DNA of 64,000 bases from positions 43,531-107,530 of the forward strand of contig JAFXSR010000033.1 of the NCBI GenBank assembly GCA_017525505.1, written 5' to 3'. The translations under genes were made by a program, and so were the position numbers. Shown here one piece after another: positions 24,007-37,315 of this stretch. The notes under the pieces are model-generated. The model was not told where the DNA came from and made no database searches. It saw only the letters and a list, made by a program, of their open reading frames with translations. The stretch is from Bacteroidales bacterium (lineage in GTDB: Bacteria; Bacteroidota; Bacteroidia; Bacteroidales; WCHB1-69). Every line of letters starts with the position of its first letter. Position 1 is the stretch's first letter.

Positions 24007-24033
24007 GGGGTCGAAATTTTCGACCCTTTTTTT
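24007..24033. terminator. Bidirectional terminator between convergent DPP4-like gene and mutS
   Basis: aaaaaa-ggggtcgaaa/tttcgaccc-ttttttt has A and T runs on either side. Confidence 0.75.
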
Positions 24034-26641
24034 ATTTTTTCTTTTTCGTGAGCAGACTTTTGATATCGTTGAGTTTCATGAGGGCTTCGACGGGGGTGAG
24101 GCTATTGATGTCGAGGTCGATGATCTGGTCTTTGATGTCCAACAGCAGCGGGTCATCGAGGGCGATGAAGCTGAGTTGATAACCAGGTTCTTTTTTCTCC
24201 ACCTTGATGGGGTCGTTGCCACTGCGACTGGCCTCCAGTTGTTTCAGCACCTCTTCGGCGCGTTTCAGCACGGCCTGGGGCATACCTGCCATGCGGGCCA
24301 CATGGATACCGAAGCTGTGCTCGCTGCCGCCTTTTTCCAACTTTCTCAGGAACAGTATTTTATTGTTGATTTCCTTGACGGATACATGGAAATTTTTGAT
24401 GCGTGGGAATTGCGAGGCCATGTCGTTAAGCTCGTGGTAGTGGGTGGCGAAGAGCACCTTGGCGCGGTGGCGCGGGTTCTCGTGCAGGTATTCGGCAATG
24501 GACCAGGCGATGGACACACCGTCGTAGGTGCTGGTGCCGCGGCCAATCTCGTCCAGCAGAATCAGGCTGCGGTTCGACACGTTGTTCAGGATGCTGGCGG
24601 TCTCGTTCATCTCGACCATAAAGGTGGATTCGCCAGTGGAGATGTTGTCGGAGGCGCCCACACGGGTGAAAACCTTATCGACAATGCCGATTTCCGCCTT
24701 CTCCGCAGGCACAAAACAGCCCATTTGAGCCATCAGCACGATGAGGGCGGTTTGTCGCAGCAACGCTGACTTACCCGACATGTTCGGTCCTGTGATGATG
24801 ATAATCTGCTGCCGCTCATTGTCCAGATACACGTCATTGGCGATGTACTTCTCGCCAGGCGGCAGCTGTTTCTCAATGACCGGATGGCGGCCATTCTTGA
24901 TGTTTATCGAGGTGGAATCGTTGACGACAGGGCAGGTGTAGTTGTTTTCCAGCGATACCGCCGCAAAGCATAGCAGCACATCCAGACGGGCGGTGAGACG
25001 GGCATCCAGCTGAATCATAGGGATATAGTCCATCAAACCCAGCACAAAATCATTGAACATACGCGTTTCTATCTCCAGAATCTTGTCTTCCGCACCTAAA
25101 ATCTTGTCTTCCAGTTCTTTCAGCTCCGGAGTGATATATCTTTCGCCGTTGGTCAGTGTTTGCTTGCGAATCCAGTCTTCCGGCACCTTCGATTTATGGG
25201 TGTTGGTCACTTCCAGATAGTAGCCGAACACATTGTTGAAGCCGATTTTCAGGGAAGGAATGCCCGTGCGTTCTGACTCGCGGCGTTGTATGTCGGCCAA
25301 AATCTGCTTGCTGTTGGTAGCCAAAGACGAAAGTGTATCCAACTCATCATCAACACCTTTGGCAAACACACGGCCTTTATTGACGGCTACAGGCGGGTCT
25401 TCCACAATCTCCTTCTCGATGCGCTCGCATACGCTGAGGCAGGGGTTCAACTGCTCGGCAATTTTTTTCAGGGAAGAGAGGTCGGTTTGTTCGCACGTTT
25501 TTTTGATTTTCTCCACAGCGCGAAGGGAGCGGGCCAATTGCACCACCTCTCGGGGGGAAATTTTGCCCGTGGCGATTTTGGACACCAGTCGCTCTACATC
25601 GCCCATTTCTCGCAGGCTGCATTTGATATTATCAGCAATAGACTCATTATCAATAAAATACTTCACCACAGATAGGCGCTCCTCAATCATCACCTTCTCT
25701 TTCAGCGGTAGCACCATCCATTTTTTCAGCATTCGCGCGCCCATCGGAGTGAGGGTCTTGTCCAGAATCTGCAACAAGGTTACCGCATTTTCGTTGGAGG
25801 AGTGTATCAGCTCCAAATTGCGTACTGTAAAGCGGTCGAGCCAAACATACAGTTCTTCTTCAATTCTGTTTAATTTATTGATATGCTGAATCTTATGATT
25901 CTGAGTCTCGTAGAGGTAATGCAAGGCGGCCCCGGCAGCGATGATACCGTATTCCAGTCCATCCACACCGAAACCCTTCAGCGAGGTGGTCTGGAAATGC
26001 TTGGTCAGCAGGTCCATGGCATAATCGGTGGTGAATACCCAGTCGTCGAAGGCGGTGAGCAGTATCTTTTCACCGAATTGTTCCTTGAAGCTGTTGGTTT
26101 TGTTTTTCTGAAGCACAATTTCTGAAGGTTTGAAATTCTGCAGCAGCTTGTCGATATAGGTGGCGTTGCCTTCGGCCACATAAAACTCACCCGTGGAAAT
26201 ATCCACGAAGGAGATGCCGATTTTGCCGTCGGTAAGATGAATACCTGCCAAGAAATTATTTTCTTTTTGTTCCAGCACCTTGTCGTTGGTGGAAACGCCC
26301 GGGGTCACCAGTTCTATGATGCCTCTCTTGACAATGGTCTTGGCCAGTTTAGGGTCTTCCAGCTGTTCGCAGATGGCCACGCGCAGGCCGGCGCGTACCA
26401 GCTTGGGCAAGTAAGTGTCCAGGGCATGGTGAGGAAACCCTGCCAGGTCGATGGACTGGGCGGAGCCGTTGGCGCGCTTGGTCAGCACGATGCCCAAAAT
26501 CTGTGAGGTCTTGATGGCATCGTCTCCAAAGGTCTCGTAAAAGTCACCCACCCTGAACAGGAGAATCGCATCGGGGTGCTGCGCCTTGAACTGGTTATAT
26601 TGCTTGATTAAAGGAGTTTCCGCCATCTTTGCCATGATCAA
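24032..26641 (-). CDS. mutS: DNA mismatch repair protein MutS
   Basis: N-terminus [31 protein letters not shown]. The Walker A motif is [15 protein letters not shown], followed by [17 protein letters not shown]. The start could be M1, M3 or M6. Confidence 0.95.
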
Positions 26642-26651
26642 AAATTTTTGG

Positions 26652-26659
26652 CAAAGATA
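26652..26659 (-). promoter_or_regulatory. TAnnTTTG promoter box for mutS
   Basis: The reverse complement of caaagata is TATCTTTG, just upstream of the mutS start. Confidence 0.55.
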
Positions 26660-26723
26660 AAAAAAATGTGCTAATTACAGGCCTTTGGCATTGAGTTTTC
26701 AGCTATGAGCCATGAGCTTTTTG

Positions 26724-27058
26724 TTTTATGAATTGATTCGCGGCGTCAGCACCAACGTACTTACCCCTCAATGTAGTAGGTGATCAGTCGTGCTGAAAGC
26801 ACGCAATCCTATTAACCCCGCATAAGCGTAGCGCAATGTGGGGTATGCGGCAAACAGCTCTGCTCCTGCGTGCCGTAGGTACGCCACATTGGAGAGGATG
26901 TAGCGTGCTTTCAGCACGCAGACAGGACTTGTCATTGTACGCCCCACACAACAAGTTGTGCGGGGTTAATAGGATATCGTGCCTTTGGCACGCCTCTTTG
27001 TCTTTCAAATTGTTTAATGAATTGATTCGCGGCGTCAACACCAACGTACTCATCCCTC
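26724..27058. repeat. Composite palindromic GC-hairpin element flanked by 45 bp direct repeats
   Basis: The direct repeat tgaattgattcgcggcgtcaRcaccaacgtact occurs at 26727-26770 and 27015-27058. The core has a 17 bp perfect inverted repeat: atcctattaaccccgca (about 26806) and tgcggggttaataggat (about 26961). Nested hairpins include cgtgctgaaagcacg, ccccgcataagcgtagcgcaatgtgggg, gcgtgccgtaggtacgc, gcgtgctttcagcacgc, ccccacacaacaagttgtgcgggg and cgtgcctttggcacg. Confidence 0.8.
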
Positions 27059-27160
27059 ACATCTCCATGCTCACATCTCCATGCTCACATCTCCATGCTC
27101 ACCGCTCACTGCCCACCGCTCATCGCTCATCGCTCACCGCCCACCCCTCATAGCTCATAG
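27056..27160. repeat. Word array (CTCACATCTCCATG x3, then CTCAYYGCY words)
   Basis: Three exact 14-mers are followed by ctcaccgctcactgcccaccgctcatcgctcatcgctcaccgcccacccctcatagctcatagc. The complementary words agctatgagccatgagc lie at about 26700-26716, on the other side of the hairpin element. Confidence 0.85.
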
Positions 27161-27201
27161 CAAAATTTACTAATTAAACGATTTGCTAATCAAAAAAATT
27201 G

Positions 27202-27209
27202 TATTTTTG
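27202..27209 (+). promoter_or_regulatory. TAnnTTTG promoter box for the ArnT-like GT gene
   Basis: TATTTTTG lies inside the ORF-track N-terminal extension, which supports the ATG at 27214 as the true start. Confidence 0.5.
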
Positions 27210-27213
27210 CTGT

Positions 27214-28845
27214 ATGAATAAAGAGGAAAAAAGATTTTACTTGTACCTGCTGATTTGGGTGTTGGCAGATTTGGTGCAGGCGGTGTTCACCAACATGCAC
27301 GCTGATGAGGCGTATTATGCGCTTTACGGGCAGTTTCTGGATTGGGGCTATTACGATCATCCGCCGATGGTGGCTTTGCTGACCTTTCTCAGCCATTTTG
27401 TCGGTACGGGGGCACTGTCGGTGCGGCTTTGTACCGTGTTGCTCCATGGGGCGACAATCTGGCTGGTGTGGAAAACCCTTTCCCGGGTGAATGCGAGTGT
27501 CCGAGATGTCAACGAGTTCTTTCTCATTGCCTTTTCCCTTTTCATGTTTGTGCTCTACGGCTTTATCACCACTCCCGATGCACCTTTGCTTTTCTTCACC
27601 GCTCTGTTTTTCTATCTGTATCAGCAATATCTGAAAAAAGGCTCGTTCCTGCTGGCAATGTTGCTGGGACTTACCATGGCGGGAATGTTGTATAGCAAGT
27701 ACATGGCGGTTCTGGTGATAGGCTTTGTCGTATTGTCGAATTTTAAATTGCTGAAAGACTGGAAATTATGGCTGGCTGTGGTTTTGGCTGCGCTTTTGTT
27801 TCTGCCCCATATCCTGTGGCAGTTCAATCACGACTTTCCGAGCCTGAAATATCATTTTCTGCTTCGCAAAGACCTGTTTTCCTGGGCTTATGTGCTGGAA
27901 TTTCTGCCCAATCAGTTGCTGGTTTTCAATCCGGTATGCTTGTTTCTGGCTTTTTATTTCTGTTGGCAGGAGCGCAAAAACAAAGACCTCTTCACCAGGG
28001 CCTGTGTTTTCACCTGTGTGGGTTTTGTCCTGTTTTTCTGGATGATGACGGTCAACGGCCATGCCGAACCGCACTGGACCATTGCCATCTCGGTACCGAT
28101 GCTGTTTTTGTTGCATAGGAATACTCGTAAAGAATTGTGGCATAAGAGAATAATGAGATATATCCTGCCGATGGCGGTTCTTGTTTTGCTGGTCCGCATA
28201 GGGCTTTGCACACCTTTTGTCCCCGACATCACGGGTTTTGGCGATTACCAGCCGGCCATGGAGGCCATTCATCAACAGGCTGGAAACAAGCCGGTTGTGT
28301 TTTACACGTCTTTCCAGAAACCCTCGCTGTACCGCTATCACACAGGCGGGAACGGCATGGCGCTGAGTTCTCTGTATAACCGCCAGACGCAATACGATAT
28401 CTTGCAGTTCGACAAGGACATACAGGGAAAACAGGTGCTGGCGGTGTCCACGATTCCTGATGATGAATATACCCAGGTCGGGAAGTATGGTTTTTATGGT
28501 CATGAATTTGCTCATTTCCAGGGAACCAACAGGATAGAGGTGCTGGTGGAGCGTCAACGGATAGAGGCGGACTCTGTGGTGTTAGAGGTGACCATCGACA
28601 ATCCCTACGCTGTTCCCTTTGATTTTGCGCATCCGGAATTGCCTGTGAGGATTTTCGCTGCTTATCTTCAAGGGGATCAGTATCATTTTGAAGAATGTGA
28701 AGGTATTGATATACAAGTAATTCCAGCTAATGACAAGGTCAAGACACAGTTGAGGTTCAAGTATATCCCTGAACAGGTATGTGTCATTTGTCTGGCCAAT
28801 TCCAGTAACATTTCTGTCAATAGTCAAGCGGTAAGCTTTGAGTAA
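27214..28845 (+). CDS. Polytopic membrane glycosyltransferase, ArnT/PMT-like (GT39/GT83 type)
   Basis: The N-terminal motif HADEAYYALYGQFLDWGYYDHPPMVALL is typical of the family. There are at least 10 predicted TM helices and then a soluble C-terminal domain of about 200 aa. Confidence 0.7.
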   Translation: MNKEEKRFYLYLLIWVLADLVQAVFTNMHADEAYYALYGQFLDWGYYDHPPMVALLTFLSHFVGTGALSVRLCTVLLHGATIWLVWKTLSRVNASVRDVNEFFLIAFSLFMFVLYGFITTPDAPLLFFTALFFYLYQQYLKKGSFLLAMLLGLTMAGMLYSKYMAVLVIGFVVLSNFKLLKDWKLWLAVVLAALLFLPHILWQFNHDFPSLKYHFLLRKDLFSWAYVLEFLPNQLLVFNPVCLFLAFYFCWQERKNKDLFTRACVFTCVGFVLFFWMMTVNGHAEPHWTIAISVPMLFLLHRNTRKELWHKRIMRYILPMAVLVLLVRIGLCTPFVPDITGFGDYQPAMEAIHQQAGNKPVVFYTSFQKPSLYRYHTGGNGMALSSLYNRQTQYDILQFDKDIQGKQVLAVSTIPDDEYTQVGKYGFYGHEFAHFQGTNRIEVLVERQRIEADSVVLEVTIDNPYAVPFDFAHPELPVRIFAAYLQGDQYHFEECEGIDIQVIPANDKVKTQLRFKYIPEQVCVICLANSSNISVNSQAVSFE

Positions 28846-34155: not shown

Positions 34156-34268
34156 TGGCTAGTCATACCCCTATACTCCGCTATCGCTCCGTATGGAGTT
34201 ACAGAGAGGCGGCCTCTCCGAGGCCGGGGCCAAAACAGGTGTCTTGCAGTAAAGAGTGTCAGACTACC

Positions 34269-35276
34269 TTACCGGGTAATGTCTCGAAGAGACATCCTCT
34301 CTGTAACCCCACATAAGGCCGTAGGCCGCAGTGTGGGGTTCATAACCTGCAGCACCTTCTCAACGGCAATTTCCGCATGTCTCCGTTCCGCCTCAAGGGT
34401 TTGGCCACCGACGTGGGGCGTGAGGAGCACGCTGTCGTTCTCGGCCAACTCGCGCAGCACCGCGTCCCACTCTTCTTTGGAAGGAATCTGCAAACGTGAG
34501 GTCTCATATTCCAGCACATCAAAACAGGCATATATGATTTTCCCTTCTTTGATAGCGGTGAGCACATCGGCCGTATTCACCGCCCAACCCCTGGAAGTGT
34601 TGAGGAAGATGAAGGGATGTTTGATTTTCTGAATCACATCTTTATTGATAAAGTAATGGTTTTCAGGAAGGTAATTGATATGCAAAGATATCACATTGCA
34701 CTGCTCAAACAACTCTTCCAAAGTCACGGCTGTGGCATTTTCATCCTCATAATTTTGGCGATAGCGATCGTAGCACAAGACCTTGCAGCCCAAGGCTTTC
34801 AGCAGTTTGGCAAAAGCTGGACCCGTGTGTCCGTAGCCAATAATACCCACGGTATGGGAGGCCAACTCTGTGCCTTTGTTTTTCTCGCGCAACCACTGGC
34901 CCTTACGGACCTCATCATTGGCAGTAGTCACATGCCGCAAAGCGGCTAGCAGGAGGGTGAGGCACAGTTCCGCCACCGCATTGGCGTTGCCTTCGGGCGT
35001 ACTCAAACAGTGAACCCCCTTGCTTTCAGTGTACTGAGTGTCAATATTTTCCATACCAGATCCAATACGCACCACAAAACGCAAATGAGGCTTGGAATCG
35101 ATAGCAGATGCATCCACCGCAAAACGGCTTCGGATAATCAGCCCGTCGTATTCATCGGGTAATGCCACAAAGCCATCGTGGGTTAGTTCTCTATTCGTCT
35201 CGCAGTGGTAGCCGTGGGTTTCCAGTTGTTCCGCAAGGAGCGGGTGAACTCTGTCAACAATCAATATCTTATGCAT
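34269..35276 (-). CDS. D-isomer-specific 2-hydroxyacid dehydrogenase (phosphoglycerate dehydrogenase-like)
   Basis: The NAD-binding motif is VGIIGYGHTGPAFAKLLKALGCKV and the catalytic region is TPHVGGQT. The start is moved to MHKILIV because a TATTTTTG box (35292-35299, minus) overlaps the longer ORF. The last roughly 25 aa are encoded by a repeat hairpin. Confidence 0.8.
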   Translation of the reverse strand: MHKILIVDRVHPLLAEQLETHGYHCETNRELTHDGFVALPDEYDGLIIRSRFAVDASAIDSKPHLRFVVRIGSGMENIDTQYTESKGVHCLSTPEGNANAVAELCLTLLLAALRHVTTANDEVRKGQWLREKNKGTELASHTVGIIGYGHTGPAFAKLLKALGCKVLCYDRYRQNYEDENATAVTLEELFEQCNVISLHINYLPENHYFINKDVIQKIKHPFIFLNTSRGWAVNTADVLTAIKEGKIIYACFDVLEYETSRLQIPSKEEWDAVLRELAENDSVLLTPHVGGQTLEAERRHAEIAVEKVLQVMNPTLRPTALCGVTERMSLRDITR

Positions 35277-37211: not shown

Positions 37212-37315
37212 TAGGTTTGGGTTGCTCTCACCCCACACTTACGTGCGGGGTTACTGAGATATCGCCTCTTCGAGGCTCAAGCGGAACGGCTTCGCCGTAA
37301 TGTATATATCACAGT

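Follow-up and report, generated by a model that had tools for sequence, protein, structure and literature searches.

A REPIN-like element of paired two-hairpin modules, associated with an IS200-like Y1 transposase gene, in the mutS-glycosyltransferase spacer of a rumen Bacteroidales genome

A hairpin cluster between mutS and a glycosyltransferase gene

We analysed a stretch of 64,000 nucleotides (hereafter the window; contig JAFXSR010000033.1, positions 43,531 to 107,530) from a rumen Bacteroidales genome, G000, a metagenome-assembled draft of 2.74 Mb in 85 contigs that is 88% complete. Our subject is a cluster of small hairpins in the spacer of about 580 nt between mutS and a gene for a PMT_2/ArnT-like glycosyltransferase. 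mutS lies on the minus strand (open reading frame (ORF) 24032-26641, 1032 bits against NCBIfam MutS), its start being taken as the ATG at 26635, and the glycosyltransferase gene lies on the plus strand (27214-28845). The cluster is a 239-nt insertion flanked by a 50-bp duplication, and the element is a REP/REPIN-like repeat (REP, repetitive extragenic palindromic) paired with an IS200-like Y1 transposase gene of subclass 1.2. We call the compound hairpin repeat unit a module and two inverted modules a doublet; G001, G002 and so on denote the genomes of relatives. The features of the window are as follows.

26771-27009, plus strand: inserted 239-nt element, a REPIN-like doublet of two inverted modules and two inner hairpins (empty-site alignments with G001 and G002; genome copies; fold)
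26721-26770, plus strand: target duplication (50 bp), left copy (repeat search; single copy in G001 and G002)
27010-27059, plus strand: target duplication (50 bp), right copy, 46/50 against the left; its final 4 nt begin the 14-mer array
26789-26843, plus strand: left module in folding orientation (nhmmer match C57:70317-70374, E 1e-17; covariation of P1 and P2, 57 sequences)
26789-26803, plus strand: P1 hairpin of the left module, 6 bp, GAA triloop
26804-26815, plus strand: linker of the left module, CAATCCTATTAA
26816-26823/26836-26843, plus strand: P2 stem of the left module, with a G.T pair
26826-26834, plus strand: P3 hairpin of the left module, nested in P2
26942-26992, minus strand: right module, inverted copy (nhmmer match C57:70524-70472 on the minus strand, E 4e-15; inverted repeat)
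26978-26992, 26966-26977 and 26942-26965, minus strand: parts of the right module, namely P1', linker and P2'/loop
26868-26884, plus strand: inner hairpin GCGTGCC-GTA-GGTACGC, with a G.T pair on the plus strand
26903-26919, minus strand: inner hairpin, inverted partner, reading GCGTGCT-GAA-AGCACGC on the minus strand
26701-26717, no strand: left heptamer-type word array, context outside the insert (unchanged at the empty sites of G001 and G002)
27056-27161, no strand: right tandem arrays, a 14-mer x3.4 and then 7-mers, context outside the insert (related arrays at the empty sites)
34281-34339, plus strand: second module, of a diverged subfamily, with P1 GTCTC-GAA-GAGAC, a linker ending GTAACCCC and a two-level P2/P3 hairpin
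37228-37275, minus strand: third module variant, with P1 GCCTC-GAA-GAGGC, a linker ending AGTAACCCC and a P2 with a GTAA loop

All the sequence features described in the original prediction, which was made from the sequence of the window, are real. The near-identical direct repeats of 44-45 nt that it reported at 26727 and 27015 are contained in a 50-nt pair (26721-26770 and 27010-27059), identical at 46 of 50 positions (92%) with a start-to-start spacing of 289, for which the chance expectation is about 1e-17. Its perfect 17 bp inverted repeat is the core of 40-nt arms (26786-26825 and 26956-26995) that are 83% complementary. Where it counted at least five small GC hairpins we read six, at 26789-26803, 26826-26834, 26868-26884, 26903-26919, 26942-26965 and 26978-26992, and its two-level hairpin corresponds to 26826-26834 nested within the stem 26816-26823/26836-26843. 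When the 239-nt insert is folded as single-stranded DNA, the fold has z = -7.1 on the plus strand and -8.3 on the minus strand relative to shuffles, and the 17-nt perfect arms pair in the minimum free energy structure.

A genome-wide family of two-hairpin modules

Searching the source genome with the region returned 73 matches, every one of which fell in the core of the cluster and none in the 50-mer. Over a length of 225-241 nt, some ten copies have 85-95% identity and roughly ten others 68-73%; many further matches, of 30-60 nt, are confined to the element ends. Most of the close copies are longer (about 380 nt) and carry additional outer arms of about 65 and 75 nt, which the window copy does not have. 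The outer arms were considered as an independent repeat, a notion that we rejected because they always adjoin cores.

A module is 55-75 nt long (about 55-70 nt for each of the two in the window's insert) and comprises four parts: P1, a 6-bp hairpin with a triloop; a conserved linker of 10-12 nt, (A/T)ATCCTATTAA; P2, a stem of the form CCCCRCAY/RTGTGGGG; and P3, a hairpin inside P2 that varies in length and sequence and is absent in some modules. No conserved 5' tetranucleotide was seen ahead of P1 in the aligned modules. Covariation was measured on 57 non-redundant modules, drawn from the window and other species; 39 of these modules have GAA as the P1 triloop. Over P1 and P2, 94.4% of cells are paired and 8 of the 14 pairs change on both sides; the observed values were reached in none of 500 shuffles, and shifting the partners by 1-3 columns brought pairing down to 32-54%. 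Position 5 of P2 is G.T in 35 of the 57 sequences and A-T in 12, so that the module has a preferred folding strand.

A profile search of the genome found 111 modules. Although long ORFs make up 85% of the genome, only 6 of the 78 strong modules lie within them. Modules form 29 convergent doublets, 22 of which span 205-224 nt, and they also occur in head-to-tail arrays, such as one with an 84-nt period near a contig end (G000:C83:122-387). The recurrence of the two-level design at 34305-34340, noticed in the original prediction, reflects a true relative, which has its own GTCTC-GAA-GAGAC hairpin just before it (34281-34293). We conclude that the 239-nt cluster is a non-autonomous REPIN-like element, made of two inverted structured modules with one inner hairpin per half.

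How widely is this element distributed? Of 9 other genomes of the genus, 7 contain the core, as does one further genus of the family, and within the genus its copy number ranges from 0 to more than 40 matches. An exact scan for linker plus P2 through 185,579 species genomes (one each) matched only 13 metagenome-assembled genomes, all of uncultured rumen or gut Bacteroidales, from cattle, yak, buffalo and deer.

Modules bracket a Y1 transposase gene

Pfam Y1_Tnp genes are present in all genomes of the genus. Those associated with modules number one or two per genome, have inverted flanks and form a clade of 150-151-aa PF01797 proteins with a mutual identity of at least 69%. The gene stands between a plus-strand module on its left and a minus-strand module on its right, in either gene orientation, in G001, G002, G004, G006, G007 (two paralogues) and G009, and the same flanking is found in Tb.RUG.328, RUG360 and RUG348, making at least nine genomes overall. 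In RUG360 (L101:4232-5044) and RUG348 (L137:5885-6453), arrays of 7 and 5 head-to-tail modules with a 123-124-nt period adjoin the Y1 gene. In sister genomes, a GCGTGCC-GNA-GGCACGC hairpin followed by TAC separates the module from the gene; it matches the two inner hairpins of the window, so that the doublet looks like a gene locus minus its gene. Two Y1 paralogues carry different module subtypes, one with the linker ATCCTATTAACCCC and the other with ATCTRCATAACCCC, and in the three genomes of the genus that are poor in modules, the Y1 homologues are more distant (47-57% identity) and still have module-like flanks of the form hairpin-linker-TAACC.

These proteins have the HUH motif DHIH and the tyrosine motif YI.RQKEHH, the Y---Q--HH signature of subclass 1.2. 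The Y1 protein scores 71 bits against PF01797 (cut-off 23). Against the NCBIfam models, the proteins score 52-64 bits with NF033573, which is borderline for its cut-off of 55, and 24-40 bits with NF047646 (REP_Tyr_transpos), the model for REP-associated tyrosine transposases (RAYTs), whose cut-off is 80. The nearest solved structures are the IS200/IS605 transposases 2F4F, 2EC2 and 2A6M.

We also sampled 200 genomes across the order, 94 of which, the window's own included, have Y1 homologues. A crude motif, hairpin-N5-16-WAACC with P1 outermost, was present in 20 of 48 gene flanks vs 16 of 334 control segments (Fisher p 3e-11, over loci that are not phylogenetically independent). Many of the Bacteroidales Y1 homologues (L161-L190; 35-53% identity) have a flanking hairpin with a GAA, GAAA or GTA loop, followed by ATAACC after 10-12 nt. 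One complete genome, G138, holds about 19 copies of a Y1 homologue gene, which behaves there like an insertion sequence.

The source genome itself has a single Y1 gene of the module-linked clade (C18:16689-17015), 97% identical to its G007 orthologue over residues 1-109. A deletion cuts this gene off ahead of the catalytic tyrosine and has also removed most of the flanking modules, leaving hairpin remnants; with its gene truncated in this way, the module family may now be immobile in this genome. One end of the truncation (L022:1381-1773) falls within the conserved module linker (...GGCATCTA), and on the other side, recombination between repeated copies of hairpin plus linker has reduced several modules to a single hairpin. 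A second Y1 gene, of a different clade (38% identity), lies at C45:157-609 (L021 154-609, minus strand). Its flanks carry a different hairpin repeat, GCCCC-N3/4-GGGGC in a unit of about 37 nt, on both sides and in two copies on the left; this gene and its repeat may constitute another REPtron-like pair within this genome.

Folded DNA sites, RNA genes or terminal inverted repeats?

What are the modules for? We think it probable that the doublets are REPIN-like elements and that their modules, folded as single-stranded DNA, are the sites recognised by a small Y1 HUH transposase (IS200/IS605 superfamily, subclass 1.2). Such sites are most likely what the modules are; the enzyme would bind and cleave the folded modules, and in this way would spread or maintain them.

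The modules could instead be structured small RNA genes or domains related to the Acido-Lenti-1 motif, the doublet then being a multi-copy small RNA locus. Stem covariation and a conserved G.U-type pair are what one would expect of an RNA, and the Acido-Lenti-1 model, RF01687, gives some modules 23-36 bits against a threshold of 37, on the strand opposite to the module orientation. The conserved G.T pair is on the strand opposite to that of RF01687, however, and is a C.A mismatch in the orientation of that model. An Rfam scan of 26000-28000 at E<=10 yielded no family at or near threshold, and a scan of the region for sigma-70 promoters and terminators found no excess, with a model that was not built for Bacteroidetes promoters. 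The arrangement of the modules is also difficult to reconcile with RNA genes: they occur as inverted doublets, solos and head-to-tail arrays, they are symmetric around Y1 genes regardless of the orientation of the gene, and they go from 0 to more than 40 matches inside one genus. On account of this symmetric placement, of the inverted doublets and arrays and of the swings in copy number within a genus, folded single-stranded DNA recognised by an HUH enzyme fits better than an RNA gene, which we regard as unlikely. The loops conform as well, C-GNA-G triloops being very stable DNA mini-hairpins.

Another view would make the element a classical miniature inverted-repeat transposable element, in which a DDE transposase recognises the 40-nt terminal inverted repeats as double-stranded DNA and the 50 bp are an unusually long staggered-cut duplication. 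It accounts for the terminal inverted repeats and for the duplication of the target at insertion, yet we found no copy with a short regular target duplication, and no longer element with these ends that encodes a DDE transposase; in the one case checked, a module pair 2.7 kb apart flanks a NAGLU gene. The arms show compensatory changes in their stems, for which double-stranded protein-binding sites have no need, and Y1 genes are the only genes regularly bracketed by modules. We consider this origin very improbable.

Empty sites and a 50-bp target duplication

The original prediction had envisaged that other strains might carry an empty site with one copy of the repeat, and two relatives do. 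The corresponding spacers of G001, the closest relative (92% flank identity), and of G002 (89%) each contain a single 50-mer and lack the hairpin cluster; in both, the 50-mer runs directly into the sequence found in the window after the right copy. The direct repeats are therefore a target duplication. The complementary word arrays that were thought to bracket the unit do exist (26701-26717 and 27097-27161), but they do not belong to it: arrays stand on both sides of the empty sites of G001 and G002 as well, and are thus older than the insertion and unrelated to it. A partial tandem duplication, one of the two origins first suggested for the repeats, is contradicted by the same comparison, since the 50-mer abuts the right flank directly at the empty site and the arrays predate the insertion. 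Beside the insertion point, the 14-mer CTCACATCTCCATG (27056-27102) is present in 3.4 copies in the window vs one at the orthologous position of G001, a recent tandem expansion.

Is such a duplication a habit of the family? Long flanking repeats of non-element DNA were found at none of 26 close copies and at none of 102 other doublets, from the source genome and the loci of relatives. Among the 103 doublets screened in all, the window copy alone was positive, two further hits being tandem arrays of doublets. The long duplication is a one-off event and not a property of the family. A search of the source genome for the 50-mer gave no occurrence beyond this locus. Neither the right junction nor the core of the 50-mer, each scanned for separately in JGI metagenome contigs, had a match there.

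We weighed two further explanations of the repeats. The duplication might be an assembly chimera of two strains, or the product of unequal recombination between alleles with the element on different sides of the 50-mer. The genome is indeed a metagenome-assembled draft in 85 contigs, and the two copies differ at 4 of 50 positions, at one of which the base of G001 is found in copy 1 and that of G002 in copy 2. Either event would nevertheless require one and the same 239-nt segment to have inserted twice independently, at points 50 bp apart and in a single orientation, whereas no such allele was seen in the relatives examined and an alignment at base resolution shows the arrangement to be colinear with the two flanks; we find this highly implausible. 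Site-specific integration, the other origin first suggested, with the repeats as attL and attR produced by an integrase acting on an element-borne attP, deserves next to no credence: long direct repeats with a single-copy empty site are the pattern that att recombination leaves, but the element would have to carry the 50-mer, whose absence from the 26 close copies and the 102 other doublets in effect rules out an att-type mechanism, the 239-nt insert holds no gene, there is no integrase ORF nearby (the neighbours are mutS and the PMT_2 glycosyltransferase gene), and the family is tied to a Y1/HUH transposase.

We propose instead that the element entered the mutS-glycosyltransferase spacer in the window lineage, and that the 50-bp duplication would stem from a non-canonical event. 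We favour copy-choice, in which two template switches would have inserted an internal segment of a longer family member: the nascent strand would exit the target after ...CCCTCA, copy 239 nt from another member of the family, and re-enter the target 50 nt upstream. Three observations fit this scheme. The window copy is without outer arms and so corresponds to an internal segment of a longer family unit; what the insertion junctions have in common with target and donor is limited to CA on the left and T on the right; and the spacer is full of slippage-prone tandem words, as the expanded 14-mer illustrates. Insertion between strand-specific nicks 50 nt apart would be a less likely alternative. 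Next to the point of insertion, the target (ACCCCTCA/C) is similar to the sequence where linker and P2 meet in modules flanking Y1 genes (AACCCCTCAC). We do not count this likeness as evidence, since the same word recurs in the local heptamer vocabulary (27139-27147).

Several points weigh against reading the doublets as recognition sites of a subclass 1.2 transposase that reached this spacer by insertion. We know of no biochemical evidence that subclass 1.2 enzymes cut or move DNA. Members of the subclass are listed as being generally without terminal hairpins or REPs (PMC6006769). The 88%-complete source assembly contains no intact cognate Y1 gene, only the truncated copy and the gene of the other clade, and covariation alone does not separate folded single-stranded DNA from RNA. 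Y1 elements canonically make no target duplication and none of the 102 other doublets has one, so that the mechanism of the duplication is not derivable from the family. The ends of the element lack sharp definition. The repeat copies differ at 4 of 50 sites, which is about the divergence between G000 and G001 and implies that the insertion event is old. It is also conceivable that the element was lost from G001 and G002 by recombination between the repeats, but parsimony favours a gain in the window lineage. Finally, the other filled and empty pairs that we compared between G000 and G001, G002 or G007 are all replacements in hypervariable spacers and gave no clean junctions.

Variation in this and another spacer

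In G007 (L035:2037-2555), the orthologous mutS-glycosyltransferase spacer holds different material, including long arrays of 7-mers (GGTTAGA-type). It also contains an independent insertion of another module subtype (GTCTC-GAA-GAGAC ... GTAACCCC ...), which resembles the window at 34200-34340. This spacer is a repeated landing site. It measures only about 52 nt in three more distant species of the same genus. Elsewhere in the window, at 1460-1489 (G000:C57:44990-45019), about 33 nt of unrelated sequence face a module doublet of about 230 nt in G001, a replacement and not a clean insertion.

Comparison with known systems

The closest parallels are the REP sequences, their mosaic combinations (bacterial interspersed mosaic elements) and the REPIN-RAYT systems, known from the E. 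coli 'REPtron' and from Pseudomonas (PMC3116915, PMC3337134, PMC6006769). As in those systems, there are about 100 short extragenic palindromic units, present as solos, as inverted doublets that fold into a long hairpin and as clusters; a low-copy gene for a Y1 HUH protein is bracketed by inverted units (in relatives, the source genome having a truncated orthologue); different paralogues of the gene match different subfamilies of units; and the distribution is lineage-restricted and largely vertical. The differences are equally clear. A REP is a single hairpin of 20-40 nt with a 5' GTAG or CGTC tag, whereas the module has 55-75 nt, two hairpins and a conserved single-stranded linker. Doublets here span 205-240 nt vs about 100 nt for REPINs, and the window copy, unlike a REPIN, has a 50-bp target duplication. 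Unlike a RAYT, the enzyme belongs to class 1 (IS200-like) with its Y---Q--HH motif, lacks the motif of the class 2 RAYTs and falls below the cut-off of the RAYT model.

TnpA_Y1 proteins of subclass 1.2 are low-copy and are found mostly in Cyanobacteria and Bacteroidetes (Quentin et al. 2018, PMC6006769). The enzymes described here resemble them in size (about 150 aa), in the DH[IV]H form of the HUH motif, in the Y---Q--HH signature, in low copy number and in their occurrence in Bacteroidetes. Unlike subclass 1.2 as described there, however, their genes have hairpin-linker-hairpin modules on both sides, and these modules are amplified across the genome. For Solibacter usitatus, the same study puts the number of hairpin copies beside class 3 Y1 genes at about 600 (PMC6006769).

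With IS200/IS605 elements and their gene-less derivatives (palindrome-associated transposable elements) the family shares a Y1 HUH enzyme, and in IS608 it is established that subterminal hairpins are recognised as single-stranded DNA. The end hairpins of IS200/IS605 elements are direct, whereas the modules are inverted and the associated gene is low-copy; canonical IS200/IS605 insertion makes no target duplication, in contrast to the 50 bp at the window copy. Long, variable direct repeats, target duplications of tens to hundreds of bp, are reported for IS1634 and IS1549. These two are autonomous, belong to the DDE elements and produce long repeats as a rule, unlike the present Y1-linked non-coding family, in which a single doublet of 103 is so flanked.

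The Acido-Lenti-1 RNA motif, RF01687 (Weinberg et al. 2010, PMC2864571), has a comparable layout of two hairpins and a linker, with a hairpin of the GTGCC-GAA-GGCAC type on the opposite strand. Five modules score 23-36 bits with its model, including G000:C71:10498-10544; the best score in the genome is 35.9 bits and the window's module reaches 16.7, so that all matches stay below the gathering score of 37. The motif was described from Acidobacteria and Lentisphaerae and proposed as an RNA of unknown function, whereas the evidence here points to a DNA-level repeat linked to a transposase. The Acido-Lenti-1 motif may itself be a transposase-linked DNA repeat.

Implications

Do these observations belong together? 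It is possible, although as a whole still doubtful, that subclass 1.2 Y1 enzymes, until now orphans described as showing neither IS behaviour nor a REP partner, are the partners of compound two-hairpin, REP-like single-stranded DNA elements of about 70 nt across the Bacteroidales, that Acido-Lenti-1 is the same kind of DNA element in other phyla, and that the 50-bp duplication records a non-canonical, Y1-linked route of insertion, by copy-choice or through nicks 50 nt apart. As a single event, the duplication is a curiosity by itself and establishes no rule.

To our knowledge, the movement of a REPIN has never been directly observed, and subclass 1.2 Y1 proteins have had no assigned substrate. 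With this locus and its relatives, the subclass gains a defined candidate DNA substrate, and one insertion now has a filled and empty pair at base resolution. An uncharacterised Rfam 'RNA' motif is perhaps a transposase-linked DNA repeat, which we offer as a suggestion. In this rumen lineage, the elements, together with the heptamer arrays, explain the strong differences between the intergenic spacers of close species, and they probably add to the breaks in metagenome assemblies.

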